Of a DNA stretch of 57,038 nucleotides, positions 4,308-56,027 are shown in pieces (the stretch's first letter is position 1; every line of letters begins with the position of its first letter). The DNA lies in IMG/VR virus record IMGVR_UViG_3300021197_000748, positions 1 to 57,038 of that record; one strand, 5' to 3'. Below the pieces are notes generated by a model that saw only the letters and a program-made list of their open reading frames with translations, had not been told where the DNA came from and made no database searches. The position numbers were made by a program, and so were the translations under genes. The DNA is from a virus. Its lineage: Duplodnaviria; Caudoviricetes.

Positions 4308-4348
4308 TGTTAACCTTTCAGTTGGGGTTCATTCGAAGCCATACTTTT

Positions 4349-4386
4349 TAAAAGAAAGCCTACGGCCCCTGTTACGGGACCGTAGG
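4349..4386 (-). terminator. Intrinsic terminator
   Basis: Minus strand CCTACGGTCCC-GTAACA-GGGGCCGTAGG followed by CTTTCTTTTT, just after the stop at 4398. Confidence 0.8.
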
Positions 4387-4397
4387 TATAAGATGTA

Positions 4398-7820: not shown

Positions 7821-7831
7821 AGTTAATCCTT

Positions 7832-8590
7832 TCAGCCTGTGTAGAACCGAGAAAGCCCGGCAAGGTTTGTCTGTGCCTGGCCGATGCTGTTTCCACCAGC
7901 GCCAAACATGCTAGACATATAGTCATTAGCGGAGGATGCCTCGAGTGCACCACCACCGCCCTGTGAGCCATCATACATACCGGCTGCGCCACCGATGACC
8001 TGACCCATAGCGCCAAGTGCGGTAGCCGCAAGCTGGCCGCTGGTATCGGGCATCGGGATCGGGCTGCTCGGGAAGTACGTCGGCGGCTTCGGCGTTGCCG
8101 AGCCGCTGAACAGCTGGGCCATAGCGGCATTACGCTTGTTCTCGAACTGGTCACGCTGGTTGCTGAAGTTCACCCGGATCCGGGCGGAGTCAGCAGCAGC
8201 ATCACGGTCGAGCTGAGCGCGGACCGCATCGGCGGTACCACCACGGCCAGCACCACGGCTGGTCATGGACATCTCCGCTCGAGCCTTCTGCTGGCGGAAG
8301 TTACGACTGAACTGGTTAGAGGCGTAGGCCTCCTGGTTACGCGACGCCCGCTTCTGGGCGAGCATCGTAGCCAGGCTTTCCTTCTGGCCTTGGCTCTGTC
8401 GCAGCACCTTCTGCATCTCAGCGAGACCCATCTGGCCACGCTGCTGCTCAAGGTTGTACTGCTTCTCAAACTCCTGGAGCTGGCGGTTCATTTCTGCCTG
8501 AGCTGCCTGAGCCTTCTGCTGCTGGCCCTGTGCGGCCGAACCCATAATGGACCCAACGGCACCGAGCGCCAAACCTGCAAGCATAATCAT
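7832..8590 (-). CDS. Internal virion protein (gp14-like)
   Basis: N-terminal Gly/Ala hydrophobic segment (LAGLALGAVGSIMGSAAQ), Gln/Ala coiled coil, then a second Gly-rich hydrophobic segment: typical podoviral ejection protein layout. Confidence 0.65.
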   Translation of the reverse strand: MIMLAGLALGAVGSIMGSAAQGQQQKAQAAQAEMNRQLQEFEKQYNLEQQRGQMGLAEMQKVLRQSQGQKESLATMLAQKRASRNQEAYASNQFSRNFRQQKARAEMSMTSRGAGRGGTADAVRAQLDRDAAADSARIRVNFSNQRDQFENKRNAAMAQLFSGSATPKPPTYFPSSPIPMPDTSGQLAATALGAMGQVIGGAAGMYDGSQGGGGALEASSANDYMSSMFGAGGNSIGQAQTNLAGLSRFYTG

Positions 8591-8593
8591 AAT

Positions 8594-10300
8594 TTATCTC
8601 CTTAAGAAACTTCCGCGCTTTGGGCGGTTGTTGCCAAAAATAGTTGTTACACGAGATGTACCACTGCCACCGCGAGCGTCGCTGATGACCTGGCCTCGAC
8701 GTGAGTCGTCGACCCACATCTGAATATAGTCTTCCTCGGCCTTCGCAATGTTACGAGCGGCCATCTCATCAACATCCACCTGCAGCCCGTCCCGCCAGTG
8801 ATCACAGGCAGCCGAGAGCACATCAACACGGTCATCGTGCTTGAGCGCTCCCTTCATGTCCGTGAGACGGGTGAGCTGGATCTGGTTCGGCTCCTCGCGG
8901 ATTGCCTTGGTGTTGAACACCAGACGATGAGCAGCCATAACAGGTTCGATATTACTAATCATTCGAGCCTCCTTCATACCGGAGACCCTATATTCCTCAA
9001 CGCCCACCTGGCCACAGATCCTGCCCACCACAGGGCGGAGCAGCGCAGCCACGGTACCATCACCGAAGTTGCTTTCAACGTGGATCTGGTTTGCGTTGTA
9101 CTGTAGAGCGTACTTGGCGATCTTCTCGAGTGTCGGCTCATCATAGCCACCCTCGAGTCCCACCAGCTCATGGACAACAATATATCCATTAACCAGTGAA
9201 GCCACGCACAGGCCCGTTTCATCCTTACCGCGGCCAGACGGGTCAACGAAGACGCACGTCTGGGTGTAGGGGATGTACTCGCCGGACACGTACATTGGCT
9301 TGTAGATCATATCACCGGACATCCCGAAGCTAGGCACCTTTCTGTGCGCCTCGCCGTTGGCCCAGACGATCTTGGCCGGGAACATCTCGGGGTCTACATC
9401 GAGCACGATCAGGTCAGCAAGCCGCAGTGGATACTTGTCCACATCAGCCAGCGAGCAGTCGAGCCTGTAGTGTAGGTCAAACTTGGCGGGGCCGATCTTG
9501 GCCCGTCGCTCATCGAGCAGCTCACTGCTGAACCGCTCGGGCTGGGTCGAGTCCCCGGGCTCCAGCGGCAGATCCTTGATCCACTGAGCCACGTTCTCGC
9601 TCTGCGACTTGATCGTAGGATCAGGCATGCAGGCAGGGAACTTGACCTGTGGGTAGCCAGCGGCAAGCTGGTTGTAGATAGAATCGCGCGTCTGAGGCGT
9701 TCCGAGCATGATAACTCGTCCACCGGGGTTACGGATCTGCTCGAGCTCATGGAGCCGTCCCAGCAGCTTCTCGCGCTGCTCAGCGGTGTCTGAGTTGCCT
9801 TCGATCTCGATATCATCGGTGATGACGATATCAGCATGGCTACCGGTAATCTGACTGGTAATACCACGGGCAAACACCGAGCTGTCCTGGCCCACCTTGG
9901 ACCGGGCGCCACTGTTAAACGCGAAGGCGTTGTCAGTCATGTGGTCACCCGGTGCTAGGTGCTGGCAGTAGGGTACGAGGTCACAGATCCGCCGGGTCAT
10001 GGAGATAAACTCCACAGCCTTCTGAGCCGTAGCCGACAGGACCATGATCGTGCAGTTGGGGTCTCGGAGCAAGAACCACGATACGAGGATCGAGGTCAGC
10101 ACCGACTTGCCGGCACCACGGCCGGCCTGGAGCTGCATGTCCTCGCCATGGTGCTGCAGCGATTCCATCATCGCGTACTGCAGGGGCGTGGGCTCAACTC
10201 CAAATAGATATTTAATACACGCATACAGATGGTTACGAGCATCCTCGACCATCTCCATGGGGACGTCATCTGGGATGTCGTCATGTGAAATTGGATTCAT
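8594..10300 (-). CDS. Terminase large subunit (T7 gp19-like)
   Basis: QAGRGAGKS Walker A, ITGSHADIVITDDIE, LGTPQ, VDPSGRGKDETG, ESNFGDG and HDDRVDVL nuclease motifs. Confidence 0.97.
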   Translation of the reverse strand: MNPISHDDIPDDVPMEMVEDARNHLYACIKYLFGVEPTPLQYAMMESLQHHGEDMQLQAGRGAGKSVLTSILVSWFLLRDPNCTIMVLSATAQKAVEFISMTRRICDLVPYCQHLAPGDHMTDNAFAFNSGARSKVGQDSSVFARGITSQITGSHADIVITDDIEIEGNSDTAEQREKLLGRLHELEQIRNPGGRVIMLGTPQTRDSIYNQLAAGYPQVKFPACMPDPTIKSQSENVAQWIKDLPLEPGDSTQPERFSSELLDERRAKIGPAKFDLHYRLDCSLADVDKYPLRLADLIVLDVDPEMFPAKIVWANGEAHRKVPSFGMSGDMIYKPMYVSGEYIPYTQTCVFVDPSGRGKDETGLCVASLVNGYIVVHELVGLEGGYDEPTLEKIAKYALQYNANQIHVESNFGDGTVAALLRPVVGRICGQVGVEEYRVSGMKEARMISNIEPVMAAHRLVFNTKAIREEPNQIQLTRLTDMKGALKHDDRVDVLSAACDHWRDGLQVDVDEMAARNIAKAEEDYIQMWVDDSRRGQVISDARGGSGTSRVTTIFGNNRPKRGSFLRR

Positions 10301-11507: not shown

Positions 11508-11915
11508 CTACCTCCCTCTGGCAATCGAAGAACCGCCAAGATAGAAGCCAACAGCGGCGAGCAAAGCAGCCCGCAGCTCAGGCAGTACAACGATACCAGT
11601 AAGACTCTCCCAGCCTCCAGTGAAGATTCCGAGGAAGTCCCAAGGGGCTCGCTCGGACTCGACGTAGGTGGGCATTCCAATGAGTCCACCGATGAAGGGG
11701 GCGATAGCCACGACCCAGAGTACCGTGAAGACGAGCACCCGACGACCGACATGAGAACCACGCACAGCAGCGCGATCAGCGGAATCGTCAGCCACAGCTT
11801 GCTTCTGTAGCAACATCTCTGTAGTCTTCTGCTGGTTCTCAATGGACGTAGCCATAAAACGAAAGATGAAGCCAGCAAGGCCACCACCTAACATACTAAT
11901 AAGTTCCATACTCAT
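11508..11915 (-). CDS. Holin, 3TM/GTA-holin-like
   Basis: MSMELISMLGGGLAGFIFRFM, central TM after GRR, C-terminal AAVGFYLGGSS motif; ATGA overlap with the upstream gene. Confidence 0.65.
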   Translation of the reverse strand: MSMELISMLGGGLAGFIFRFMATSIENQQKTTEMLLQKQAVADDSADRAAVRGSHVGRRVLVFTVLWVVAIAPFIGGLIGMPTYVESERAPWDFLGIFTGGWESLTGIVVLPELRAALLAAVGFYLGGSSIARGR

Positions 11916-12535
11916 CGCATAATCCAATCTTTATTAAAGGGCTTGAACCACCATTCTGTGGTGTCTCGCATCTGCCAGCCGTCATTGGTCACACCAATCC
12001 AGCCATCGGTTCCGTGTGCCTCCTGCACCAGGTTAAGCCAAGCGTTGAAGGCTTCCCCGTAGAACCCTGCGTTGTCGAGCACCATAACAAGGTGGCGTTG
12101 AAATTCAGACGTATCACATCCGATATTAGTGGGCGGCGTAGGATCCCAGCTGCAATAGGCAGCATGGAACCAGACCGCACCGTTGTTTGCAATGAGTTGG
12201 TGATCGCCTGCAGCCCACATAATAGCCGCTGCAGACCAAGCACCCACTCTATCTCCCGCGATAGTTACCAATCGAGGATGGGCTTCCATCTTCCAATAGA
12301 GACCCAAACCAGCATAGGCGTCACCGCCGCCGCTGTCAATGGTCAGGAGGATTACACGATTACCAGCCCGCGAGACAAGAAAGTCCCAGAGGTAGAGATC
12401 GATGCGCTCCACAGTACCAGTGTAATGAACGGAGATGGATACACCATCCTCGTCCTTCACCTCGAACCGTCCTGCACTTGCTGAGGAACACAGCGATGCG
12501 ACAAGCACCAGTGCTCCCATAATAAAGTTTCTCAT
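11912..12535 (-). CDS. ClpP/crotonase-fold serine peptidase with N-terminal signal peptide
   Basis: Start MRNFIMGALVLVASLCSSASA (Sec signal, AxA cleavage) after AAGGA; ClpP motifs LTIDSGGG, AWSAAAIMWAAG (catalytic Ser) and VWFH (catalytic His). Confidence 0.75.
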   Translation of the reverse strand: MRNFIMGALVLVASLCSSASAGRFEVKDEDGVSISVHYTGTVERIDLYLWDFLVSRAGNRVILLTIDSGGGDAYAGLGLYWKMEAHPRLVTIAGDRVGAWSAAAIMWAAGDHQLIANNGAVWFHAAYCSWDPTPPTNIGCDTSEFQRHLVMVLDNAGFYGEAFNAWLNLVQEAHGTDGWIGVTNDGWQMRDTTEWWFKPFNKDWIMR

Positions 12536-12585
12536 GGTAATATCCTTTTCATTTATGTAAACTACTTGTTGTGTTGTCATAATAA

Positions 12586-12617
12586 GGGGACACAGGCCAC
12601 AGCTGACCTGTGCCCCC
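12586..12617 (-). terminator. Terminator-like hairpin
   Basis: Minus strand GGGGGCACAGGTCA-GCTG-TGGCCTGTGTCCCC then TTATTAT; G-U pairs fit the minus strand; weak U-tract. Confidence 0.65.
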
Positions 12618-12621
12618 ACTA

Positions 12622-12781: not shown

Positions 12782-15124
12782 TTAATCGGGATCCTTTGGT
12801 AGGTATCCCATTTGAGGTGAAGTATTACTTCTATGAATATCCTTACGATAGCTGCCGAGGCCAGGAGTATATCCTGAACCCGATTGCTCATAAGACCACG
12901 TGCCTGGGAAAGAGCCCTCGACCCCGACTGGAGTATATACCAGCGAGATTCGGTCAGCATCAGTAGCAGGACTAGAGAGTCGTACTACATCCTGTTCATC
13001 GAAAGACGGAACAGAAGAGCCAGAGCCCTGGTCGGCATCGAGACAACTAATCATACGAACGCCGGGAGGCAGCTTGTCAGTCTTGTAAACCATATCAAAG
13101 TTAAGCGGGTAGGTGGGGTCTGGGTTATCCCAGGCAGCACCCGCCGCCTCGCTACGAATAGCCTCAAAGACGCAATTACGTATGATAAAGTTCTTTGCAA
13201 TAAATGCCTGGTTGGGAAGAACAACTTCATTGTCGCCAGGCTTTCCGCTAGGATCAGAACTGTCCCAATGATCTCCTACATCTGCTCCCGGCTTAACCGA
13301 GCGCCAGGGAATGTACTCGTGGTATCTTCCATTAAGCTGATATTCAGAAGTTTGCATCCAAGGTTCCGGTCGCAGCCATTCGACAGCCTCATGAACACTG
13401 CTCAAAGGCTTAGGATGATCGAAGTCAGGACGGAAGACCGTAGACTGATCTAGGATCGTAAGATTCTCAAAGAGAATATGCCTAGCCCATGACGCATGTT
13501 GGGAAACCACAATAATTGTACCCTCGAGGTTCTCAAAGATGCAGTTAACAAATGCTTGGTTACTATGAGCCGAGTCCGTCTTACCGATGAGGATGTTCTG
13601 CACATCTCTATCTTCAGTAGCCTGGAAGCCGAAGTGAATAATATTATTACTCGGACGACCCTGGATCTGGAAGTGGTCACAATGCCACAGGTTTCGATTA
13701 TAAGGACTAGCAGCACTCCAGGTCTGATCGTCTTCAATCGACGCGCCAGTACCCAGAGTAAGCTGCGGGTTCCCTAGCTCGTAGGCTCCCGCTCCTCCGG
13801 GAAGAGATGGATCCCTAGTCGCGGGGTCATCATTAACCAGCTGATTCTGACGGCATGTACAGTCTACGCTAAAGGTAGTCCGCGCCATAGAATCATGAGT
13901 AATCGCTTCCTGATGGGTGTTTCGGACCATGTCCAAACCACAGGCACCGTAACGCACACCGAAGAATGTGGAGTTCTCAACAAAGTTTCCTCCACCATCA
14001 AAGGAGTCATTAGCGCGGATAGGATAGCTCTGGGACGTACGCAGCCAATCGCCACGTACCCAGTTCCACTTACTATCTTCGAATTTACAGTCAGAGAACA
14101 TCCAGATGGTTGCATCCTTTTCTGGGTGCACTCCTGGGTCGGTGTCTTCTGCTACCTCCCCGTACAGCTGACCGATATGCTCAATCATAAAGTGAATACC
14201 GGTGCAGTGGATTCTTCTATGCTGAGGTCGCCAATCAAAGCGCTCAGGGTCTCCTCCAATAGGAGTACCATCCTGAGGCTTCAGCTGTACGCCGACGCCG
14301 TCAGTCTGCTCGCTCCAGCTGAGACCAGGACCTGCTTCAATCTCTAGCGGATGAAGTGGGTTATCTCGCTTAAACGTGATCGGAGCCTCGTACACTCCAA
14401 GGTCGTTTATGATAATCTTCAAACCGGCGCTGCCGATAAGATCTAGATCAGTTGTATCTACGGCCTTTTGAGGATTGCGGTAAGGAGAGCCGATAGTACC
14501 ATCGCCCGTGGTATCGTCCCCGTTAACGGAAACATACTTGATAATTTTATCAGGCTTCGCAGGGAGCATCAGCAATGACTGCAGCCCTGAGCGGTTCGTT
14601 CTGTATCTGTAGGGCTCCGTATCCTCGTTGCCGGTCCACATAGGGGACTGAAGGACAAGAGGGATCCCCGAGCCTACGGGATAAACCCGAGCTCGGAGCT
14701 CTACGTAACCCTTAGCATCTACATTGTTGGCGTCAGTAAGGGTAAGCTTACCCCAATACTCTCGGTTACCGGTGCGAGGGTTGTTAACCAACCCCCGCGC
14801 CGTAACCCAAGTACCACCATTACAGGAGAACTCGACGCGATCAATACCGTTCATATGAAAAGCAATGACCCCGATCTCGTACTCCGTATTCAGCTCCCAC
14901 GTCTTATAGGGCATCTCTGCCCAGCGCGCAATCGCTGTTTCATCGTAGCCAGCGGCTGTGCCGTAGCCAGCGATCTCAGGAGTAACCGCGGTAAAGCCAG
15001 TTCCCACAGGGATCACCGGATGAACCGGATCAATGTCCCAATCACCGACACCAATTTCAATACCGTCAGCAATGACTGACCACATTGATGTGTCGTTAAT
15101 TGTGAATCTATTTTTATTAGTCAT
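12782..15124 (-). CDS. Tailspike/depolymerase-like protein (Ig-like domain + right-handed beta-helix), 780 aa
   Basis: N-terminus MTNKNRFTIND; GYDETAIARW...NGIDRVEF domain; YVSVNGDDTTGDGTIGSPY beta-helix cap; HCDHFQ motif. Confidence 0.65.
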   Translation of the reverse strand: MTNKNRFTINDTSMWSVIADGIEIGVGDWDIDPVHPVIPVGTGFTAVTPEIAGYGTAAGYDETAIARWAEMPYKTWELNTEYEIGVIAFHMNGIDRVEFSCNGGTWVTARGLVNNPRTGNREYWGKLTLTDANNVDAKGYVELRARVYPVGSGIPLVLQSPMWTGNEDTEPYRYRTNRSGLQSLLMLPAKPDKIIKYVSVNGDDTTGDGTIGSPYRNPQKAVDTTDLDLIGSAGLKIIINDLGVYEAPITFKRDNPLHPLEIEAGPGLSWSEQTDGVGVQLKPQDGTPIGGDPERFDWRPQHRRIHCTGIHFMIEHIGQLYGEVAEDTDPGVHPEKDATIWMFSDCKFEDSKWNWVRGDWLRTSQSYPIRANDSFDGGGNFVENSTFFGVRYGACGLDMVRNTHQEAITHDSMARTTFSVDCTCRQNQLVNDDPATRDPSLPGGAGAYELGNPQLTLGTGASIEDDQTWSAASPYNRNLWHCDHFQIQGRPSNNIIHFGFQATEDRDVQNILIGKTDSAHSNQAFVNCIFENLEGTIIVVSQHASWARHILFENLTILDQSTVFRPDFDHPKPLSSVHEAVEWLRPEPWMQTSEYQLNGRYHEYIPWRSVKPGADVGDHWDSSDPSGKPGDNEVVLPNQAFIAKNFIIRNCVFEAIRSEAAGAAWDNPDPTYPLNFDMVYKTDKLPPGVRMISCLDADQGSGSSVPSFDEQDVVRLSSPATDADRISLVYTPVGVEGSFPGTWSYEQSGSGYTPGLGSYRKDIHRSNTSPQMGYLPKDPD

Positions 15125-15137
15125 ATAGCTCTCCTAC

Positions 15138-17930
15138 TTAGCTGTAGTTAGACCAGCCGCTGATGTCACCTGGGTCTTGCGAAAGACCCACGACAACCAG
15201 GGTATCACCAGCGGTCGGAACCGTGCCGCCCAGAGTATACTGCTGAATCTGACCGGAGTCGGTCTGCCACGCATGCGTAGTCCACACACCAGTAGTAGCA
15301 TTCCAGACAGCGATGTACGGGACATCTGTCTCGTAGGCTGCGGTTACAGTCCCACTAAGATCTCGAACCTGAACCGCACTAGTAACTCGTAGTTGTGAAA
15401 TATCAAAGAGCTGACCGGTAGGAGTCATAGTCACTCCAGTTACCCAAGTACTGCCGTTGGAGACGATCGAACTCGTCTCGGCAATGGCGTAGGTATCCCA
15501 GTCATCGGCCACGCCCGGAGGAGCCATCTTAAAGCTAAACAGAGAGATACCTCGTCCGTTAACCAAACCAGAAGGCGCAAACCAACCGAAGTTGTTCCCG
15601 TGATCGGTCACAAGACTGCCGTCAAAACTTTGGTCACAGAACTGAGTTCCTGTATCATCATCGCCAACCCAGCCTTCCAGCGTGTAGTCCACCCCGTCGT
15701 AAGTAAGACGAAGGAACATGTGAGCTTCGGGATTCGCGGCAAGATCGCCGGGGAACATATCGAAAGTCTGATTGCTTTCTGAATTATTAGTATACATCGT
15801 AATAGCGGATGTATTAGTACCGGCCTTAGGGGCAATACCAATCACCGTATAATCACCGTCGGCTCGATCTCCACCATTGATAATAAAACCAAAGACTGCG
15901 CCAAGAGACGACTGCGCACCACGGGCAGCCTTACCTTCCATTACCCAGCCACCAGACGGGGGCGTGCCCAAGTCCGTGACAAAGGAGTCTTGCCATGTGG
16001 CATCGCCGATAACACTCTTAGAGATGTGTGTATCTAAATACCAACCATTACTGCTTGAGGAAGACTGCAGAGCCCACGTAGGTCCGCTAGTGTCCTGTAC
16101 GCCGTAGTTCTCAAAGACACGCCCACCGGATACCCCAAAATCGGTAGTAGTACTATTGTCAATAACCCCTGAGGCAGTCGCCATCGAAGTAAAATCGATA
16201 TCAAAGTACGGAACCTCAGGAGCTGGTTCAGGCCGCGAGGCAATAGCACCGGTCGAGAGATCAATTACATACTGATGGAACTCAGCAGCGGTTACTACCG
16301 TGCCTTCCCCGTCGGTCATAGACCCTACGGGATCTCCACCGGCTCCAACAATCAGACCAGCCTTGTGCATATCATACAGCACCTGCTTAAGAGTAAGCCA
16401 GTTAATATCCATAAAGGGCTGAACCTCTGTCTGATTGCCCCAACGTACGGTACAATGTACCTCGGTATCCGAACCAAACTGATCAGCACTTCCCGTTACA
16501 GCGGGGTTACCAATAGTAGCAGACGTAGCATTATCGCTAGCATCAGCATTAAACACCGTGAGATTCTTTTGGATGTTGAGAGCATTACCATTAGAGTCAA
16601 GTCCACTGTAGCCAATCACCGTACCGAACAAACCAAGACAGGCGCTAGTGGTATAGATACCCGCGTTGTCTCCTTTGTACATTTCAGTGGTAGCATTAAA
16701 ACCGGCCATAGGGATAGACTCAACCATGGGGCTAAACCCTAGTCCCGTGAAAACATTCGTCAAACGAGCGCTGCCCGGACGGGCGGCAATAGCGTTCTGA
16801 CCCGTACCTTCACGTACCATACCCTCGGAATTAAACCAAAGCCTTGCTCCGGTATCGAGGCCAATTTCATTAAAGCCCATGGAATACAGCCCAGCCGCCT
16901 CAACATCCCACCAGCCCTCAAACTTTTCGTTAGAGCTCGAGATGCCGGGGTTATTAGCATCAACGTAATCAAAACCAGGCTGGGGGTTATAAGAAGGATT
17001 ATTTCCACCTGCGTCCGGATCCCAGCCGTCGATATCACTAGGCGAAGACGTTCCGAGAAACGTGCGATCGTAGGTTGCCATATCGTTATTAGTATAATTA
17101 GGTCGATACCCGGAGTAAGATTGAATCTTGGGTGGTCCCGGTGCTGGGCCAACTCTAGCAGCAATGCGATCTTTAATCGCCGTGATTGCTGTAGTCCAAG
17201 CAGCTTCGGAGTCACCAATAGTACCATCTATGCCGTTAGGCGTGAAGGGGCTAGTAGTAGTTCCAGTACTAAAGTTACCAACCCAGGGCGCTGTGGACTG
17301 CGACAGACTACTATAGGGATTAGCTGGATATTCAGGGGCATAACCCCCGCTTCCGTTGTTCTGGTTGATGTAGCCAGCTGGGTTCCAGATTCCAACCCTG
17401 TCAAACCCAGCATCAATCGCCGGGTAGATCTTATTTTCTGTCCAAAGCAATCGCCCATTGGTTTGTGAATCAGTCATATCATTACCCGCTGCAGGGGTTT
17501 TACGATATTGCGTTTGGGGAACACCCCACGCTTCACCGTCTGAAACTCCGCCAGGGGCATTATTTGTAGCCGGGCCGTCAGTGCTTGTGGAAGTAGCAAA
17601 TCCAGAAACAAGCATTGGTCGTCGATCGGCCTGGAAAGTGATGCCAACGAACTCCACGTTAGTTCCCGACCAGGACGTAATGTCCGCGGGAGTGGTAAAG
17701 CCCGCATCGGAGTAAGCCTCGATGTCGTAGAGCTTACCCTGCTCCATCGAATCGTAATCAGTGATAGGATTCTCGGAGTCTCCGGTCTCGAAGACCTTGA
17801 GGTAAAGAGCACCGCCGGAAGCCGTGGTGAACGTAGCCATAAAAGCTGGGTCTTGACCCGCAGTTGCGGCGGTCAAGGTGAACGTCACGTTCTCGCCCGC
17901 AGGCGTAGTAAATGTAAGTGAATTAGCCAT
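15138..17930 (-). CDS. Large receptor-binding/glycan-active protein, 930 aa
   Basis: Gly/Thr/Asp/Trp-rich; possible TIM-barrel segment (AGFDRVGIWNPAG, GFNEIGLD, MVESIP), lectin-like beta region and C-terminal Trp-rich module; cassette RBS. Confidence 0.55.
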   Translation of the reverse strand: MANSLTFTTPAGENVTFTLTAATAGQDPAFMATFTTASGGALYLKVFETGDSENPITDYDSMEQGKLYDIEAYSDAGFTTPADITSWSGTNVEFVGITFQADRRPMLVSGFATSTSTDGPATNNAPGGVSDGEAWGVPQTQYRKTPAAGNDMTDSQTNGRLLWTENKIYPAIDAGFDRVGIWNPAGYINQNNGSGGYAPEYPANPYSSLSQSTAPWVGNFSTGTTTSPFTPNGIDGTIGDSEAAWTTAITAIKDRIAARVGPAPGPPKIQSYSGYRPNYTNNDMATYDRTFLGTSSPSDIDGWDPDAGGNNPSYNPQPGFDYVDANNPGISSSNEKFEGWWDVEAAGLYSMGFNEIGLDTGARLWFNSEGMVREGTGQNAIAARPGSARLTNVFTGLGFSPMVESIPMAGFNATTEMYKGDNAGIYTTSACLGLFGTVIGYSGLDSNGNALNIQKNLTVFNADASDNATSATIGNPAVTGSADQFGSDTEVHCTVRWGNQTEVQPFMDINWLTLKQVLYDMHKAGLIVGAGGDPVGSMTDGEGTVVTAAEFHQYVIDLSTGAIASRPEPAPEVPYFDIDFTSMATASGVIDNSTTTDFGVSGGRVFENYGVQDTSGPTWALQSSSSSNGWYLDTHISKSVIGDATWQDSFVTDLGTPPSGGWVMEGKAARGAQSSLGAVFGFIINGGDRADGDYTVIGIAPKAGTNTSAITMYTNNSESNQTFDMFPGDLAANPEAHMFLRLTYDGVDYTLEGWVGDDDTGTQFCDQSFDGSLVTDHGNNFGWFAPSGLVNGRGISLFSFKMAPPGVADDWDTYAIAETSSIVSNGSTWVTGVTMTPTGQLFDISQLRVTSAVQVRDLSGTVTAAYETDVPYIAVWNATTGVWTTHAWQTDSGQIQQYTLGGTVPTAGDTLVVVGLSQDPGDISGWSNYS

Positions 17931-17990
17931 TCGGCTCTCCTTGTAAAAGTTAAGTAAAGTCCCTGCTGCCCCGCTAAGAGCAGCAAGGGA
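17926..17990 (-). repeat. Intergenic cassette copy 1 (hairpin + U-rich spacer + AAGGAGAG RBS)
   Basis: Minus: TCCCTTGCTGCTC-TTAGCG-GGGCAGCAGGGA CTTTACTTAACTTTTACAAGGAGAGCCGAATGGC. Confidence 0.85.
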
Positions 17991-18001
17991 AGTGTTGGTT
18001 A

Positions 18002-20029
18002 TCAGCTAGGGGGAGTATTGTCTCCACCCCAGGCAGTGCTGTACGAAGTTGCTCTTGGCAGCGTCTGAGGAATGTGCGTATCAGTCCAATCGACCGTGAT
18101 GTTTTCCAGCTCGGCCTGAGTAGGAATACTTGACCAACGTACACCAATAGAACCTCCATCGGCTGCTGCCGTCGTGGCAACGCCCTGAGTGGTAAGAGTC
18201 AACCGATCAAATACATCCGAAGTTGTATTAAAGAACGGAAGGTCGGTAGAACCCCAAGAGGTAGTGCCGATTGCACTCCCGTTGATAGGAAGGAACAAGT
18301 TTGCAAATCGCTTAGAAGGTCCACCGAGACCGTTGTCGCTCTCAAAAGCAGTCATCATTCGACCAGCTACGTTTGACTCCAAGGTAAGCGAGGAGTTTAT
18401 AAGGTTGCTCATAATCGCACTAAATGATGTTGAGATACTGCCCGTAAGAATAGTATCATCAGCAAACAGAGTGTTATGTCGGAACTCCACTAGCTGAGAG
18501 GCGTTAAGCACCGTGTCCACACCGCCGTTAAATGCAAGAACTGTCTGACCGTTTAGAACCTCATTGTTAGGCTGTACGGTTGCGTTAGTTACGATAAGGT
18601 TATTATTAAACTTCATCGAACCTGTAGTCGTATGAGGATCACTATTGTAAGGCTGAAAGGACATAGCCCGTGCGCAGTTGAAGAAGATGCAGTTCTCGAC
18701 CGTGGCGTTAATCCAGGAATCTTGGTACAGAGAGATACCCTGACCGTGACCTGTGGTTGGAAGACTGAAGTAACATCCGCTAATAAGTGAGGGCTCGATA
18801 ACGGTCGTCCCGACCTGGTCACCCATATTACTAATAGCCGATTTATTCTCCATGCCTCTAAACGTACTGTTTACAATACGACATCCGGGTCCTGTGATAA
18901 TAGCCGAGGATTCCAGCCGATAAAAGGTACATCGCTCTACGTCGTTAGCCGTTCCATAGCACGCATACTTACCAAAGCTAAAGCTGCAGTTCTTAAGGGT
19001 ACTCTTACGAGTGCCGTCAGTACGAGCCGACAGCAGACTGGCGTTGTAGGTTCCCTGAGAGCCTCCGATGAAGGTAGTCCCGTAAAACTGAATGTCCGCC
19101 AGACCGCCACTAGAGACCTCAAAGATATGAGGCCGAAGCGGCATTGCGGCAGACTGCGGTACCCCATTAACGGGGTTGTAGTAAATCTTCCCGTTATTGA
19201 TATCGATAGAGTACTCACCGGGCGCTAGATCCTGACCACCATACATGCAGAAGGACAGGTAGCCATTATAAGTAATACCAAAGTCCTCCGCAAAGGTCAT
19301 AACACCGGTGTTTGAATCCCAGGCTGTAGGTATCCTGAACGCAGTCACGTTAGGTCCAGCGTGGATGTTAATACCAACGGAAGAAATACCTACCGCATTT
19401 ACGCGGGCAGTGATCTCATTTCTAAGGGTCGGGTCTGTCACAGTAAATCCGGTGATTAGCTCGCCCTGCGCGTCGTCTCCGCCATCCGTTTGGGCAGTAC
19501 CGTTGTTGATCCCGTTAGACGTCGAGTTGACCTTAAGCCAGTTGCTGTTCACGGAAAATCGATTATTTCCATAACCAGAAGGGACTGCCGGGTAAACCTT
19601 CAATGCTGGAGCATCGTCTTGGTCGGCATCTACTAGATAGTTTCTCATGTCGTCGAGCCAACTCAGGTTAATATCCGAGCTATATACCCCGCCGCCTAGA
19701 TCTGTCCAAGAGGACAAAGCCTTTGCTGCGGTGAGGTATCCTCCAACCACGATCAGATCCTTATTATTGTTAGTTGGAAATGGATCGGTATTGTCTTCAG
19801 GCTCGAAGCCTTGTCCACGAAGATCCAGGGATCCCCCGTCGGGCGTAGCGTCTAGAAGTGTCTGCAAGCTAGACCACGTTCCCATAGTTGCGGGTCGCGC
19901 TTCGCCGACACCGTTCGGTCCAGTCCCTTGGTCAGGGATACCACCTTGGATCTGCACGCTATCGTTCTCAGTCGCAGCCTCAATAGACCAGACGAGATCG
20001 GAGGTAGTAAATCGATTTCTATAAGCCAT
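18002..20029 (-). CDS. Right-handed beta-helix glycanase-like tailspike, 675 aa
   Basis: N-terminus MAYRNRFTTSD; WTDLGGGVY and PGEYSIDINNGKIYYNP motifs of beta-helix glycosidases; repeated NCxF/RCTF rungs; HGQGISL. Confidence 0.65.
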   Translation of the reverse strand: MAYRNRFTTSDLVWSIEAATENDSVQIQGGIPDQGTGPNGVGEARPATMGTWSSLQTLLDATPDGGSLDLRGQGFEPEDNTDPFPTNNNKDLIVVGGYLTAAKALSSWTDLGGGVYSSDINLSWLDDMRNYLVDADQDDAPALKVYPAVPSGYGNNRFSVNSNWLKVNSTSNGINNGTAQTDGGDDAQGELITGFTVTDPTLRNEITARVNAVGISSVGINIHAGPNVTAFRIPTAWDSNTGVMTFAEDFGITYNGYLSFCMYGGQDLAPGEYSIDINNGKIYYNPVNGVPQSAAMPLRPHIFEVSSGGLADIQFYGTTFIGGSQGTYNASLLSARTDGTRKSTLKNCSFSFGKYACYGTANDVERCTFYRLESSAIITGPGCRIVNSTFRGMENKSAISNMGDQVGTTVIEPSLISGCYFSLPTTGHGQGISLYQDSWINATVENCIFFNCARAMSFQPYNSDPHTTTGSMKFNNNLIVTNATVQPNNEVLNGQTVLAFNGGVDTVLNASQLVEFRHNTLFADDTILTGSISTSFSAIMSNLINSSLTLESNVAGRMMTAFESDNGLGGPSKRFANLFLPINGSAIGTTSWGSTDLPFFNTTSDVFDRLTLTTQGVATTAAADGGSIGVRWSSIPTQAELENITVDWTDTHIPQTLPRATSYSTAWGGDNTPPS

Positions 20030-20088
20030 GTGGCTCTCCTTGTAAAGTTAAGTAAAGTCCCCGCCTCTCCGGTAAGAGAAGCGAGGGA
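20025..20088 (-). repeat. Intergenic cassette copy 2
   Basis: Minus: TCCCTCGCTTCTC-TTACCG-GAGAGGCGGGGA CTTTACTTAACTTTACAAGGAGAGCCACATGGC. Confidence 0.85.
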
Positions 20089-20092
20089 AGGG

Positions 20093-23000
20093 TTAAGATG
20101 ATTTAATAAGACCGAAGGGAATAGCCTCTGTAACACCGTCTGCCGTAAGAAAGCAAGTCAAGGACTTACCCACGTCCTCAGCCTGAACAGTATAGCTAGA
20201 GGCTGTACTTACCACCGTACTTCCAAGCATCCACTTGTAAGATCTCGGGGCAGCATCGTTTTCTAGTAGTTCTCCTTCATACTCAAGAGCAACTACGTCA
20301 GTAGGAACCTTTCGAGTTGCGTTATTTGATGCAGGGGGAATACGAAAGCGATTAAAGGGAAGCAATGTGGTAATGGTTTCATTGCCAGTGCTTCCCGTTT
20401 CAATTGCATCAATAGGATGAGGCAACGAGTTGGCAGTTCGAGGGTTACCCTTAATATCATAAGGAAGAACCGAACCGAGATCCAGAGTAACTGGGTCGCT
20501 TACAAGTGATGTATGCAGCAGTCCTCCGTCTTCGATAGCCCCATACTTAGAAACGCCCCATTCCTTATTACCTGAATTAGAAACGTAGTTAGCCACCATA
20601 GTATTACTAGCGGCGGGGACTACGTTAGGGTTACCGAGCCAGGTCGTACTAAAAGTACCAACTGTACCCAGAGCCGAGTCCTTGAACTGAACGTCAAAAG
20701 CGCCAGGAGGGCTGGAGCTGTTTGAAGTACCATCAGTCTGCGAAATCGAGGAGCCTTCAATATGGAGATGGATATCCTCCGCATCTGCTTCTCGCGTTCC
20801 TGTACTCATGTTCACCCAGTTATCCATGTTTGTTCCCTTGATACCAAGCCGCATAGGAGCTGGCTTCTCAATCTTGAAGAGAGTATCAGCCCTGACATCC
20901 TTAGGATCCAAGAACAAAGCATTAGAGAAGACGCAGTCCGAAACTGCGCCGCTCGCTTGGAACAGGAACTGCTGTTCCATGACTGAAGTGTAGTCGTGAA
21001 ATAGCGTATTGTTCATTGTGGCGGGTGAGTTGGATGTTTGTACCCCATCCTGGTGAGCCCAGAATATTGGGCAGACTCGATCGCCTGCTTGCATATCCAT
21101 GGTAAGGATGTTGTCAATAAACGCTTGAGCGAGAAGACCGTTGGCAGGGGTGTCCGTCACTGGGTTTAAACCACCCGAGCTATAGTACGCCGCGACAGTA
21201 TCTGTGTTAATATCAAGACCTTCGGCGGCAAACAATGGAGCACCGTCTGGGTTGTCATACCGAGCAGGGCTGTACATTCGCATGTATGGTAGGGCCGGAT
21301 CGAGCGGGTCGACGCCTTCTCCAATAGGAAAGGACGGCCTGCTGTTAGACCAAGACATTAGGGCCTTTCCGTTGCCATCAATAACTCGGTTACCAACAGT
21401 AGCGGGGTATGGGTTTCTTCCCCAGTCAGCATCGTCAACATACGTAAGACAGGCCGAAGATGAGACATACGACTTGGCAGCAAACGTCCTGCCAGCTGGG
21501 GTCAGAGGCTGACCGCTCTTCCACACAAAGAAATCAAAGTCGTAAAAGCGAGTACCGGCGGTGCAGTCGCCGTAAGTGCCGTCAATGTCTGAGCTCTGCT
21601 TATATCTAGCAGGCCATGTCGTAGGGGGCGTAACAAGATATGCGCGCCACTCTAGGATGTTCTTACCAGCATTAATTACATCAGTATCAGTAGCGTAAAA
21701 CGTACCGTCCTCAGCTACCCACGTAATCCGACTGATTTCGCAAGTACCGCGCGCGATGCTATCGTTACCAACGGAGTCAGCATAGTCGTAATAGTACTTA
21801 CCATTTACATCAATTCCTCCAGTACTGAGACCAAAGCCGTTCGATACATAGCGTTCGGTATCGAGGTCAGTCCCTGAGGCATTAGGCCCATAGGAGGTAA
21901 TGTGTCGGAAGTTGTTTACGCCAGCCTCAGCTGCGGTCGTTAGGAAGTAAAGCGTATCCCACCAAATAGCACCATCGCAATTAAAGATGGAGCTTGGGCC
22001 GCCGCAGACGATTGTATTGATGAAGGTATTATAGAGTCCTACATTAAGACGAGCGTTAGCATCCGAGCCTCTAAACAACGTCTGCTCGTATGGGTTCTTA
22101 GTGGAGGCTCCTGGGTCATCCGCCTGGTCTGACCTAATAGCCGGGTTCTGGCGTCCAGTAGGCGACTTGCCATAACTCATGCTCGAATCTTTAATAGTAC
22201 ATTCATTAAAGACCAGAGGAATAAAACCCTCAGATCCAAGAGTAAAGGCCAAATTGTTATACATATCAAGCGTGATATTTTCAAACAGAATAGGATCCCC
22301 GTTACGCAGAGAACAAGTAGTCCACGTAGGATCAAAACTGTCTGCATCCTCCTCGGTAGTACCTGGGAAGTCACTCGATAAGATAATAGTCACATCATTC
22401 TTGTCCCCCGTCGACGACCTAATTCTCCGGTAACCCGCAGTAAGAGGATCCGTTGAGTCTAGAGCAGGGAAGGTAGAAACACTTTGAATCGTATATAGCC
22501 CAGGGGTAAGAACAAAATCAATCGCCTTATACTGGGTACTGTTATCTTGGTTGTACCTACAGATGTTCGAGTGAAGGTTAGGTGAGTACAAGGTACCATC
22601 AGGCTCCACATAGTCAATTCTTGTGTTCTTAGTTAGGTCAAGGTCTGCAGCGTTAAGATTAACCGTGTGAATCTTCGTAGCATCTTCCATGACTCGAATC
22701 GTCCGTGAGACAACACGAGCAGGAATAACCGATGGGGATCGTGGGATAGCCTCGGCGTACAGAGTACGATCTTCGTAGTCCGTAGGGGCTGTATTAGAGT
22801 TGTCAATGCGAACCCAGTATCCCTGTACCTTTGTTCCATCGGGCATAATGCGCTGAGTAATCTCAGTGACAGTTTGTGCCGAAGAACCACCGTAGTAGAA
22901 GTTTACCTGTTCAATGCCAGTAGAGTCGTAAGTATCCGCAGAAGCGCAGGCATACAGTGCATCGTCGTCTGCCACGTAGAATGTTTCAGCAAGGAACAGA

Positions 23001-23170
23001 TGTACAATCGTAGCTTGCTCATCTTCAGTAAGCGTAGGGGAAGACTTAGTATAGTTAGCATCCCCATTCCAGACTACAGCGCTTACAGGCGCTGAGACAC
23101 CAATAGTCTCTCCATTGGCACTTACCTGCCAAAACGTATCTGTAATAGTAAATCTATTTTTATTAGCCAT
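20093..23170 (-). CDS. Tailspike/depolymerase-like protein, 1025 aa
   Basis: N-terminus MANKNRFTITD; TGIEQVNFY Ig-like domain; LTPGLY and FENITLD beta-helix start; HQDGVQ; C-terminal Ig module YKW...SYTVQAEDVGKSLTC. Confidence 0.65.
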   Translation of the reverse strand: MANKNRFTITDTFWQVSANGETIGVSAPVSAVVWNGDANYTKSSPTLTEDEQATIVHLFLAETFYVADDDALYACASADTYDSTGIEQVNFYYGGSSAQTVTEITQRIMPDGTKVQGYWVRIDNSNTAPTDYEDRTLYAEAIPRSPSVIPARVVSRTIRVMEDATKIHTVNLNAADLDLTKNTRIDYVEPDGTLYSPNLHSNICRYNQDNSTQYKAIDFVLTPGLYTIQSVSTFPALDSTDPLTAGYRRIRSSTGDKNDVTIILSSDFPGTTEEDADSFDPTWTTCSLRNGDPILFENITLDMYNNLAFTLGSEGFIPLVFNECTIKDSSMSYGKSPTGRQNPAIRSDQADDPGASTKNPYEQTLFRGSDANARLNVGLYNTFINTIVCGGPSSIFNCDGAIWWDTLYFLTTAAEAGVNNFRHITSYGPNASGTDLDTERYVSNGFGLSTGGIDVNGKYYYDYADSVGNDSIARGTCEISRITWVAEDGTFYATDTDVINAGKNILEWRAYLVTPPTTWPARYKQSSDIDGTYGDCTAGTRFYDFDFFVWKSGQPLTPAGRTFAAKSYVSSSACLTYVDDADWGRNPYPATVGNRVIDGNGKALMSWSNSRPSFPIGEGVDPLDPALPYMRMYSPARYDNPDGAPLFAAEGLDINTDTVAAYYSSGGLNPVTDTPANGLLAQAFIDNILTMDMQAGDRVCPIFWAHQDGVQTSNSPATMNNTLFHDYTSVMEQQFLFQASGAVSDCVFSNALFLDPKDVRADTLFKIEKPAPMRLGIKGTNMDNWVNMSTGTREADAEDIHLHIEGSSISQTDGTSNSSSPPGAFDVQFKDSALGTVGTFSTTWLGNPNVVPAASNTMVANYVSNSGNKEWGVSKYGAIEDGGLLHTSLVSDPVTLDLGSVLPYDIKGNPRTANSLPHPIDAIETGSTGNETITTLLPFNRFRIPPASNNATRKVPTDVVALEYEGELLENDAAPRSYKWMLGSTVVSTASSYTVQAEDVGKSLTCFLTADGVTEAIPFGLIKSS

Positions 23171-23227
23171 GTGGCTCTCCTTGTAAAGTTAAGTAAAAGC
23201 TCCGCCTCCCCGGTAGGGGAGACGAAG
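23166..23227 (-). repeat. Intergenic cassette copy 3
   Basis: Minus: CTTCGTCTCCC-CTACCG-GGGAGGCGGAG CTTTTACTTAACTTTACAAGGAGAGCCACATGGC; 33 bp identical to copy 2 (23165-23197 vs 20024-20056). Confidence 0.85.
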
Positions 23228-23239
23228 ATTAGAGGTTAA

Positions 23240-26200: not shown

Positions 26201-27673
26201 CTGTTCAGTAATAGTACCACCGTCGCCGGTAAAGGCGAGGGGAGTCCAGTCTGCAGGCGCGGTAGATCCCACCTCAGCAAGGATAGTAGGACCAACCCAC
26301 GTAACCGTAGCATCAATCAGTACACCCTTATCAGTATAAGCATAAGCATACAGCTGAGTATTCGCCGGGGGATTATTGGTCACCTCAGTACCTGAAGGAC
26401 CGATGCCCGTAAAGAGCCTAATCTCAGCAACATCTGCGGACGGAGGAGGCTCAACAATAATGACCGGAGGTGCAGCGTCTTGAGTGCTCTGGTAAAGCTG
26501 ACCATTGAACGCCTGAATAGCAGTGACCTCGCAGGTATAAGTACCCGGATCACCGTTGAAGTTATAGAAGGCATCTGCGTTGTTCTGAACCGTAGCATTA
26601 TTCTTCATAAACTCATTTTGATAGATCAAGCTACCGCCCTGACCGGTTCCGGTGGACTGGAAGCTAGCGTCAAACGTAGGAGTAACCTGAATGGTCTGTC
26701 CCACAGTGGATTCAAACAATCCCGGATCGCTAGTCCACGTCCAGATCTGTCCAATAACGCCGGTAGCTTCGGAGCTAGTGATCCCGGTGGAAGTGCTATC
26801 GAGATAGAAGAGCTCGACTTCACAGCGAAGCCGAAGACCTGCGTAGCTTTCGGGAGGGGTATACGAGCTAGAAGAACCAGTCTGCCGCTCAGTCCAGTTA
26901 AGACCGCCATCAGAGCTAGTCGACCACGTATACACCGTATTGACGGGGATACGAGAATCAAGACCATCAACGGTGAAGTCAGCTTCGTACGCAACACCAA
27001 CCAAGGGTGTCTGCTTAGGGAAGCTGAGGTTTTCGTTGGTCAGTGCCGGGATAACCTCGGCGGGCAAGCTGATCGCATTCGGCAAAGGCTTATCAGTACG
27101 AACCTCAAAGCTGTAGCTAGTATCGTACCGCGCCGGGACCACAATGGTCTGCAGCGGATCGGCAAGCAGAAGCTGTTCCGTAACATTCCCAACAACAAGT
27201 AGGTCTTGCTGCATCGAGTTCGTGGTACCAGCCCACAGATCCTTGTTAAAGTTACGAAGTGTACCGATGAACTCACCGTTCTGGATCTTCTGAGACATGA
27301 GGTTATCCCCATCCTCGTCGATCTGCCCGAGGCCATCCTGCACCAGTTCGCTGATCATAAACTCGAGGCCGTCCTGCGTAGCACCCGCGTGGATAAAGCA
27401 TCCAACGAGAGCACCAAGAGCGGTGGCCTGCGAGGGGAAACGACCGACAAGATTATACTGATTGATAATCAAGGTCCAGTCGTCTCCGGCATCGTTCGCG
27501 ATAACAGAGAACGAGTTCACAGCGCGGAGGTCACCTCGATGAGAAGCGATACCCGCAGTGGAAAGCTCCACCGGATATTCCGATGTTGCGTTTACAATAA
27601 GGTTGTCGGTACCGTCAAGAAGGTAGTTACCTGCACCATCCTTGAGGTATTGAAATACTAAGAGTCTGTCCAT
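23240..27673 (-). CDS. Multidomain receptor-binding/depolymerase-like protein, about 1477 aa
   Basis: Likely start MDRLLVFQ after AAGGAG; Ig modules; YDERVIARF...NGVERVDF domain; YYLDPVNGSDANDG beta-helix cap; HKDFTQ; two C-terminal Trp-rich modules. Confidence 0.7.
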   Translation of the reverse strand: MDRLLVFQYLKDGAGNYLLDGTDNLIVNATSEYPVELSTAGIASHRGDLRAVNSFSVIANDAGDDWTLIINQYNLVGRFPSQATALGALVGCFIHAGATQDGLEFMISELVQDGLGQIDEDGDNLMSQKIQNGEFIGTLRNFNKDLWAGTTNSMQQDLLVVGNVTEQLLLADPLQTIVVPARYDTSYSFEVRTDKPLPNAISLPAEVIPALTNENLSFPKQTPLVGVAYEADFTVDGLDSRIPVNTVYTWSTSSDGGLNWTERQTGSSSSYTPPESYAGLRLRCEVELFYLDSTSTGITSSEATGVIGQIWTWTSDPGLFESTVGQTIQVTPTFDASFQSTGTGQGGSLIYQNEFMKNNATVQNNADAFYNFNGDPGTYTCEVTAIQAFNGQLYQSTQDAAPPVIIVEPPPSADVAEIRLFTGIGPSGTEVTNNPPANTQLYAYAYTDKGVLIDATVTWVGPTILAEVGSTAPADWTPLAFTGDGGTITEQQGSDPNERMYDERVIARFISPLFTDVENESSVSVFAYAGGVSAIDTENNTYTRNGVERVDFYINDGPAYSVTSTTIDAEGNEVYVCPFNPTDITTDSRGFEVRAVVYPTLGKTRILQGPEFESNNGRIEGTPTTAELVAHAEEFNNRGVNLCRWTKQYYLDPVNGSDANDGLSSSTPKETMFSIVGASGELYFRNMKVYLMGTSFAGTRYLLGGSAPDGLPQYPADSTNGSVGVWPRGYSGSDVILPGKLIGTTQDQTIQSTGTSGATGKITGTIFDNLTITTETTDPSYLWQMKDPNYSSYFQIENCRTGYITDDNAAAAAAHFMDPNTTPVNGQSALGTFVPSDNSAGGGAALCMFNCTAEWADWGLSINESVNCTVENGLTRDCMNARGLCVNATVKNVAEFVWPIGSIAYFNKASDQQILQDYNNGVLNSFYAETSYTVDASTGKPQGVDLSVVCVPNANDISNSASDFDFGAIPESDPLHDVHKDFTQIQIAVLGNGVIYRYLGTEDYQGLNASQGVFISNNNVIDVAGGDRPCRVFDCVFKDIVINNTILGQYGFTAGSWSSDLNDPAALAPGYVPPSTPAALDLVTHNVHIDSVTTPSARNSSKDDSDTYSFTRKNSFWWFGEDMDKDTGAIQPGVAQSTVQFSSGLVTNGQEFDDETIAIDAVSTVIPSWNTYNLNNLLYSNVPPVDYTTYADGEYYGTPPSTSSTMVTTTAPTTYFEITQVDSSSGNLRLRVNGGNWPPNDPSQYPAYLATWVDGLGWSILEWNGVTSSGNRYVLVDGYSFPSSGSYVVNDMGVIALTQYDGDVSVWEDFVSPSSADDWDTYQLGAGTAPGYGSGQLNPTFDANFPLDANTEVALNTFSGYTNNTRSYFATSANRDKMPEYMGIYITAEEAAAGAFGHADNAGWYVFGPKVDENPGANGHSNWVPHAWPTGGSDGTNGGLWNNSDVYSIGVVYLSDYTGATGNGGTDGWTEPTVLFP

Positions 27674-27697
27674 TATGGATCTCCTTGTAGAATTAAT

Positions 27698-27736
27698 AAA
27701 GTAAAAGACCCTCACCCCATCTCTGGGATGAGGGCC
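27698..27736 (-). terminator. Terminator-like hairpin (diverged cassette copy)
   Basis: Minus GGCCCTCATCCCA-GAGA-TGGGGTGAGGGTC then TTTTACTTT...TACAAGGAG. Confidence 0.75.
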
Positions 27737-27761
27737 GGTCGTCAGCTCGTGCTGAGAAGTG

Positions 27762-55975: not shown

Positions 55976-56001
55976 GTAGTCTCCTTGTAGCAACAATGAT
56001 A

Positions 56002-56026
56002 TTCTCTTATTACTTCCAGTTGAGAG
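56002..56026 (-). promoter_or_regulatory. Putative phage RNAP promoter, copy 1
   Basis: Minus CTCTCAACTGGAAGTAATAAGAGAA, directly upstream of the RNAP RBS. Confidence 0.65.
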
Positions 56027-56027
56027 A

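Follow-up and report, generated by a model that had tools for sequence, protein, structure and literature searches.

The 57,038-nucleotide (nt) stretch of DNA analysed here, hereafter the window, is a whole linear IMG/VR virus record (IMGVR_UViG_3300021197_000748; CheckV 85%) from an uncultured T7-like podovirus. Three of its minus-strand open reading frames (ORFs) encode large spike-like proteins of 1025, 675 and 780 amino acids (aa), called w1025, w675 and w780, which share the start M-x-x-[KR]-N-R-F-T...W...A. We favour, with moderate confidence, the reading that this peptide of ~25 residues, referred to below as the tag, is a virion-attachment (docking) module of secondary receptor-binding proteins. 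The earlier note on this DNA had proposed that the peptide is a beta-hairpin plug that docks interchangeable enzymes on a hub. The docking part of that proposal gained indirect support from selection on the peptide, a boundary directly behind it, its recurrence, its natural exchange for an anchored N-terminal module and published precedent, whereas the passengers gave no match to an enzyme in Pfam or in PDB sequence searches.

The shared N-terminal peptide and its upstream cassette

The three proteins share the tag at residues 1 to ~25 and have no pairwise similarity detectable by BLAST past ~residue 35. The ORF of w675 (18002-20029, minus strand) starts with MAYRNRFTTSDLVWSIEA; the full tags are given in Table 1. 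In the tag family as it now stands, nine tags of which six are distinct, with two phage lineages known from DNA, the residues M1, N5, R6, F7, W14 and A18 are unchanged in 9 of 9. The tetrapeptide NRFT occurs three times among the 114,072 six-frame residues of the window, each time at residues 5-8 of one of the three proteins. The composition predicts 0.40 occurrences, and 200 shuffles gave a mean of 0.55, with three or more in 4 of the 200, so that the count by itself is only mildly unusual. Chance is excluded instead by the placement of the motif at the same position behind the start Met in three long adjoining ORFs. One 16-mer (AATCTATTTTTATTAG, plus strand) is present at both 15105-15120 and 23151-23166 and forms the centre of a repeat that spans 46-80 nt at 67-86% identity. 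None of the three proteins matches Pfam PF03906 (Phage_T7_tail), even at E <= 5. The observations with which the earlier note began, namely a common start on three otherwise divergent proteins, 16 identical base pairs (bp) and the lack of a gp17 anchor, were thus all reproduced.

The longer repeat extends into a 5' untranslated cassette common to w1025, w675 and a neighbouring gene, w930. This cassette consists of a 12-bp hairpin with a tetraloop, a T-rich stretch, TTTACAAGGAGAGCC and the ATG, and contains a strong Shine-Dalgarno sequence. It precedes four consecutive genes of the window (w1477, w1025, w675 and w930), as well as the r1025 and r711 genes of a second phage, G001. Across six copies in the two phages, the hairpin stays paired, with 8 of its 12 stem pairs changed in a compensatory way (14 pairs are predicted in all), and the predicted folding is better than that of shuffled sequences, with z = -3.8 and -4.1 for two window copies and -1.9 for the third. 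The cassette may serve as a terminator, or else in RNA stability or processing. The idea that it is a phage promoter was unsupported; the motif was found only in the spike block, with two matches at three or fewer mismatches, plus looser copies.

Such a cassette could in principle account for the shared start without any docking: the hairpin, T-rich tract, Shine-Dalgarno sequence, ATG and first A-rich codons would be copied with each spike gene and kept for expression and shuffling, and the common peptide would be a by-product. The presence of the cassette before all six genes named above, the pairing kept by compensatory changes and the better-than-shuffled folding of two copies speak for this explanation. 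So does the start of w930, MANSLTFT, a degenerate copy of the tag start at the DNA level, since w930 shares the first codons (MAN...FT) and differs as a protein afterwards. In addition, the two phages have almost identical cassettes behind the 1025 gene, and the next gene is w675 in the window (18002-20094) and the w930 homologue in G001 (locus L016, 13080-13150). As w675 is bounded by two cassettes and absent at this place from G001, a single gene gain or loss (insertion or deletion) flanked by cassettes separates the two arrangements, which suggests, from the sequences compared, cassette-mediated recombination. The PeSL promoter/stem-loop cassettes of T4-type phages offer a precedent (PMC2839356 and PMC4122927).

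Against this explanation, both w780 and the G001 protein r701 retain the tag and lack the cassette, because their genes are translationally coupled to the upstream gene; the w780 gene begins 13 nt past the stop codon of the w930 gene. The conservation also extends to W14 and A18, far past the initiation region. Furthermore, in nine paralogous tag pairs (codons 2-25) synonymous differences amount to 0.54-0.93 and non-synonymous differences to 0.24-0.55, and conserved residues are encoded by differing codons (AGA or CGA for R6, TTT or TTC for F7). Synonymous sites that are near saturation while the amino acids persist, together with the differing codons, indicate that the peptide is conserved and not the DNA alone, and the tag appears, at this level of comparison, to be under purifying selection as a peptide. 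We therefore consider it unlikely that the shared start is a mere by-product of the cassette. The cassette looks like a DNA- or RNA-level feature separable from the tag, one that accounts for some of the nucleotide identity and probably provides the homology for gain and loss of spike genes.

Recurrence of the tag and exchange of the bodies behind it

When 5.8 billion proteins were searched with a profile built from the N-termini, eight of 1946 candidates reached E <= 10; they carry three body types and all belong to this phage group. The tag recurs on three kinds of body and in a second, distant phage lineage, that of G001; the earlier note had recommended looking for such recurrence with a hidden Markov model. 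Profile-derived scans of nucleotide collections gave 36 pattern matches in viral contigs, of which one (G001) was confirmed, 65 in metagenome contigs, corresponding to one distinct locus of the same phage type, and 46 in genome contigs, none of them confirmed. A word-based search with residues 1-40 of w1025 returned only w1025 itself (1 of 13 candidates at E <= 10), and a degenerate DNA pattern, which also allowed Ser at the R position, gave 13 matches in viral contigs, none from a relative and all in short ORFs or non-spike contexts. Scans with the w1477 anchor, w235, the Ig-like (immunoglobulin-like) block of w1477 and w951, proteins that are described below, found G001 and one further relative, L002, only. 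In the proteins and contigs scanned, the tag appears rare and confined to this small phage group.

G001 (loci L016-L019 and L021), which is 62 kb long and 93% complete, shows 42% identity to the window in tail-tube A and 33% in tail-tube B. The spike block is nevertheless there too. Its r1025 (L016 10001-13078; start MANKNRFS) is 90% identical to w1025, with 23 of 25 tag residues shared, suggesting that a whole w1025-type spike gene, tag included, moved recently and horizontally between phages. Its r711 starts with MANSLTFT and is 45% identical to w930 over 570 aa, and r628 has a w1477-type anchor. The protein r701 (start MTNRNRFT) has a 675-type body (27% identity to w675) and a tag closer to that of w780 (16/25) than to that of w675 (9/25); a 780-like tag thus sits on a 675-type body, and the tag subtype tracks gene position, not body type. 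In L002, genes resembling w951 and w187 are present, together with only one fibre, which has a w1477-type anchor and is followed directly by two small unannotated ORFs and then the terminase; a tagged gene is absent. As an aside on the 1025-type gene, it looks split in one public assembly into P0028 (170 aa) and P0005 (693 aa), the longest contig being 15,467 nt for both; the N-terminal piece, P0028, is out of frame past ~residue 128, which may be a frameshift or an assembly error.

Two database proteins mark the tag as a unit of exchange. P0002 matches w1025 at 945 of 1000 residues overall and at 99 of the 100 residues that follow the tag, and at 19 of 25 residues within it (Fisher p = 0.0025 and 0.0002); with 6 of 25 tag residues changed versus 1 of the next 100, a mosaic boundary lies directly behind the tag. 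P0033 (1482 aa) is a natural fusion: its residues 1-437 correspond to residues 1-448 of w1477 (57%), those at 462-1149 to w675 residues 52-652 as well as to residues 38-531 of r701, and those at 1323-1480 are a w1477-type C-terminus. Its N-terminal module of ~440 residues, comprising the anchor, middle domains and Ig-like block of the w1477 family, therefore takes the place that the tag has in w675 and r701, and the two are natural alternatives before the same body. By these alignments, P0033 appears to be a direct example of exchange between primary and secondary positions.

The bodies themselves gave few leads. At E <= 5, the tagged proteins had only chance-level hits in Pfam, and PDB sequence searches with the five large proteins w1477, w1025, w675, w930 and w780 returned nothing significant. 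A weak match of w780 to PHROG 4577 'tail protein' (E = 3e-4) is the one result that points to a receptor-binding or depolymerase domain in a passenger, and w780 residues 60-166 resemble w1477 residues 501-615. Judging from their size, their position and this PHROG match, the passengers would be glycan-degrading spikes.

The peptide might also act within its own chain or oligomer, as a trimerisation cap or as Ig-like strands, or else bind a chaperone or assembly factor, rather than contact the virion. Residues 11-103 of w1025 (22862-23140) gave weak, non-significant phmmer matches to antibody heavy-chain variable (VH) or nanobody domains (E = 0.013-0.4), and the region is possibly an Ig-like N-terminal domain, or the matches are due to chance; they hint that in this protein the tag could lie within a beta-sandwich. 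A 25-residue hairpin would moreover be too small to fold by itself, and the hub candidates remain several, with none singled out. On the other hand, the regions behind the tag are unrelated, and linkers come first, Gly/Pro-rich in w675 and w780 and Gly/Pro-rich or short in r701, which makes a common partner in the same chain unlikely. In addition, the 675-type body of P0033 does without the tag when fused to the anchored module. We hold an intramolecular or assembly role to be improbable.

Candidate platforms and the layout of the spike block

In the docking arrangement that we favour, the tail would carry anchored primary fibres, namely w672 with a gp17-type anchor and w1477 with its own family-specific anchor. 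The three anchorless tagged proteins would hang on the tail by the tag, perhaps a beta-hairpin, plugged into a platform on an anchored protein and tethered to the body through the Gly/Pro-rich linker. Our tentative first choice for the platform is the block in the w1477 family that looks Ig-like (residues ~410-485); the N-terminal region of w930/r711 and w672 are alternatives. The earlier note had sought the hub among the proteins of 187, 951, 930 and 1477 aa. The latter two stand as candidates, since w1477/r628 and w930/r711 co-occur with tags in both tag-bearing phages. In contrast, w187 and w951 are disfavoured, because they have no homologue in G001 at E <= 1 (in searches run without a positive control in that record) and yet are present in the tagless L002. 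That list had also left out w672, the protein with the gp17-type anchor.

The N-terminal anchor of w1477 is common to r628, L002 and P0032-P0034. Its NPPANTQLYAYAY block occurs in both tag-bearing phages, is kept in all 5 aligned family members and is absent from the fibre of L002, which has the w1477-type anchor and no tagged gene. The block looks Ig-like by eye; ESM Atlas gave bacterial Ig, PKD and Big_7 leads for residues 400-625, all below 0.9, and Pfam gave no match. An AlphaFold2 (AF2) model of residues 1-640, built from 5 sequences, was too poor for use, with a mean predicted local distance difference test (pLDDT) score of 35.8 and only residues 1-121 at ~70, and a PDB fold search with this poor model gave 0 matches at E <= 0.001. 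When the tag alignment (7 rows, 45 aa) was paired 1:1 with w1477 residues 395-620 (5 rows), the ipSAE values were 0.03 and 0.08 (mark 0.32); this prediction, made at one stoichiometry and without controls, speaks neither for nor against binding. P0032 is the sole family member with an altered NPPANTQLYAYAY block and the presumed partner of P0002, to judge from their equally long longest contigs (33,385 nt), so that the P0002 tag and the P0032 block appear to co-vary, a single weak hint.

Residues 1-90 are the best conserved part of w930/r711 (N-terminal identities of 22/30 and 25/30), and the gene is always followed by a coupled tagged gene. ESM Atlas leads for w930 were glycoside-hydrolase- or lectin-like and all below 0.9. 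With its degenerate tag-like start, w930/r711 might serve as another hub or might itself be docked, as the fourth such protein.

The match of w672 to Pfam PF03906 (E = 8e-4, 19.6 bits) is below the 25.2 cut-off. In a fold search, its N-terminal AF2 model (pLDDT 81.6) matched, at probability 1.00 and TMt 0.5-0.63, the N-terminus of T7 gp17 (7boz, 7ey9, 7ey7) and other podovirus tail-fibre chains; among the matches were those of Kp7, Kp9, PhiM1 and cyanophage tails. We take w672 to be the true gp17 equivalent; it has 111 relatives with variable C-termini and would be attached to the tail. Within its gene, three tandem 18-nt units (32249-32302) encode three tandem 6-residue repeats of the fibre shaft. 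G001 has two proteins with a gp17-like N-terminal region where the window has one: r316 (L016 3616-4566; 316 aa) contains almost nothing but the gp17-like anchor region, and r459 (L016 6656-8035) combines the gp17-like N-terminal region with a collagen-repeat match.

Of the named candidates, the w1477 block leads, though only tentatively, while w930 is doubtful and w672 unlikely; that the hub is some other protein is likewise no more than a fair guess, slightly ahead of the w1477 block.

Several points weigh against the docking reading. A T4gp10-like branching domain was not found by Pfam at E <= 5 in w672, w1477, w930 or w951; hhalign against residues 1-340 of KP32 gp37 aligned the anchor alone with the w672 family and left the w1477 family unaligned; and w672 residues 1-290 gave no fold match to gp10. 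For the passengers, neither family nor PDB sequence searches yielded a match, and 'tailspike enzyme' is itself an extrapolation. The co-occurrence argument comes from 3 loci and the tag counts from 24 codons in a tiny family. The tag is also less conserved than the body in P0002 (19/25 versus 945/1000) and in P0031 (11/25 versus 53/100 ungapped and 73% by BLAST), and this could reflect relaxed constraint rather than co-adaptation. Finally, three spikes with one tag, where each secondary protein of the published systems has its own peptide, pose a stoichiometry problem. In a bolder version of the docking reading, one tag type would serve three, perhaps four, different spikes per virion through a platform that is not T4gp10-like, the candidate Ig-like block of the w1477 family, possibly with a w930-type protein, forming a multivalent or chained tail 'rack'. 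The tag subtype of r701 and the P0002/P0032 co-variation fit such a rack, to which we give little credence for now.

All long genes of the window lie on the minus strand (Table 1). From tail-tube B to the terminase, the order of transcription is w672, w951, w187, w1477, w1025, w675, w930, w780 and w235. The five large genes w1477, w1025, w675, w930 and w780, without family matches and placed between tail genes and terminase, are probable receptor-binding genes, and the G+C content of this spike block is 47-52%, versus 54-60% in the rest of the window. Tail-tube B is at most ~25% identical to its counterparts in cultured phages (703 records), and tblastn with w1025, w675 and w1477 residues 1-520 found no match in the cultured-phage collection; by these comparisons, the phage appears distant from cultured phages. 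The gp14-like gene lies past the terminase, and so do the two ORFs that come after it, one of 1140 aa and one of 1435 aa or more (window 3-8590, minus strand); compared with the gene order of T7, the internal core (ejection) proteins therefore seem to have changed place.

At the end of the spike block, w235 (11912-12619, minus strand) bears on a further explanation, namely that the tag serves as a signal in targeting or processing, for instance for head packaging or for removal by w235 as a secreted ClpP/S49-like protease. The gene adjoins the spike block in both phages, the G001 counterpart r207 being 80% identical, and the protein has weak ClpP/S49 and 'head maturation protease' matches and a predicted N-terminal signal-like hydrophobic stretch. 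However, the tag has neither a hydrophobic core nor a twin-arginine motif, proteins of 675-1025 aa encoded between tail genes and terminase better suit external spikes, and no prohead protease is known from T7-like phages. We regard this explanation as highly improbable.

Table 1 Features of the window discussed in the text
Feature	Position	Strand	Remark
w780, tagged spike-like protein, 780 aa	12782..15124	-	
w675, tagged spike-like protein, 675 aa	18002..20029	-	
w1025, tagged spike-like protein, 1025 aa	20093..23170	-	
Tag of w780, codons 1-26	15047..15124	-	MTNKNRFTINDTSMWSVIADGIEIGV
Tag of w675, codons 1-25	19955..20029	-	MAYRNRFTTSDLVWSIEAATENDSV, then Gly/Pro-rich linker
Tag of w1025, codons 1-25	23096..23170	-	MANKNRFTITDTFWQVSANGETIGV
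5' cassette of w930	17931..17996	-	
5' cassette of w675	20030..20094	-	same intergenic sequence before r711 of G001
5' cassette of w1025	23171..23235	-	12-bp hairpin, then CTTTTACTTAACTTTACAAGGAGAGCCAC, ATG
Related 5' cassette of w1477	27674..27744	-	hairpin 27707-27736, T-rich run, AAGGAGA
w930	15138..17930	-	degenerate tag-like start; hub candidate or fourth docked protein
w1477, large fibre/spike, 1477 aa	23240..27673	-	family-specific N-terminal anchor, residues 1-~125
w1477 conserved block, residues ~409-483	26225..26449	-	DV..IRLFT...NPPANTQLYAYAY
w672, T7 gp17-type tail fibre, 672 aa	31193..33211	-	sub-threshold PF03906 and fold matches
T7 gp14-like protein	7832-8590	-	PHROG/Pfam match; past the terminase
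Large terminase	8594-10300	-	PHROG/Pfam match
Tail-tube B	33284-36229	-	PHROG/Pfam match
Tail-tube A	36208-36867	-	PHROG/Pfam match
Major capsid protein	37117-38286	-	PHROG/Pfam match
Scaffold gene		-	PHROG/Pfam match
Portal	39458-41086	-	PHROG/Pfam match
T7-type RNA polymerase	53450-56074	-	PHROG/Pfam match

Comparison with known docking systems

Docking peptides let phages, and phage engineers, exchange host-recognition spikes without rebuilding the tail. An architecture of anchor, branching domain and conserved peptide was inferred by Latka et al. 2019 for KP32-, KP34-, Menlow- and PhiK64-1-type phages, and conserved N-terminal peptides of 7 residues and longer were described for K1E/K1-5/SP6 and several Klebsiella phage groups (PMC6872550). 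By genome engineering, Latka et al. 2026 found that the peptide and the branching domain are both required to incorporate a secondary receptor-binding protein, and that the conserved peptide is able to carry a foreign enzyme (PMC13352976). To these, the present case adds observations from nature: a tagged spike with 90% identity between phages that share only 33-42% in their tail tubes, one body that is either tagged or fused to an anchor, and a mosaic boundary exactly behind the tag. If the hub is not gp10-like, it would be a second docking solution; if the multivalent rack is real, its branching chemistry would be new to podovirus tails, and distant phages would have a natural plug-and-play standard in common. 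At present, we regard the finding as a solid lead for annotation and not as a surprise.

The closest parallel is with KP32, K11 and KP34, which are likewise T7-like podoviruses with anchorless secondary spike-like proteins that bear a short conserved N-terminal peptide, and in which an anchored primary fibre is encoded upstream (gp37 with anchor and T4gp10-like branching domain, gp38 with the peptide). A passenger can be found in either position in both cases, P0033 corresponding to the engineered primary/secondary exchanges in the KP32 system (PMC13352976). The tag has no sequence similarity to the N-terminus of KP32 gp38 (MLDNFNQPKG...). Unlike in KP32, a T4gp10-like domain was not detected here by Pfam, hhalign or fold matches; three secondary proteins have one tag type and a fourth a degenerate start; and two kinds of anchored protein are present (w672, gp17-type, and the w1477 type).

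In K1E/K1-5/SP6, the adaptor gp37, whose N-terminal domain is gp17-like, holds two tailspikes through N-terminal peptides of 7 and 11 residues (PMC6872550). The interchangeable spikes with very short N-terminal peptides resemble the present ones, and r316 of G001 consists mostly of a gp17-like N-terminal region, whereas the tag here is longer (~25 aa) and of the same type on all spikes; to see equivalents of the SP6 adaptor in r316 and w672 residues 1-243 would be an analogy only. The multi-tailspike complexes of the CBA120/G7C/Menlow type also come from 4-5 consecutive receptor-binding genes whose products have variable bodies behind conserved N-termini (PMC6872550), but belong to myoviruses or N4-like phages, in which gp10-like XD domains hold further spikes and each spike has its own N-terminal module. 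For the cassette, the counterpart is PeSL of T4-type phages, where a repeated stem-loop with expression signals flanks variable genes and marks insertion/deletion boundaries (PMC2839356, PMC4122927); the phage family and the sequence differ, and the motif here is restricted to the spike block. Taken together, the design appears, by analogy, to be one already known from Klebsiella and coli phages, to which the present case would add an uncultured T7-like lineage; what is unusual in it, next to those systems, is that three spikes have one tag type, that no gp10-like domain was detected and that distant phages have a tagged spike in common at 90% identity.

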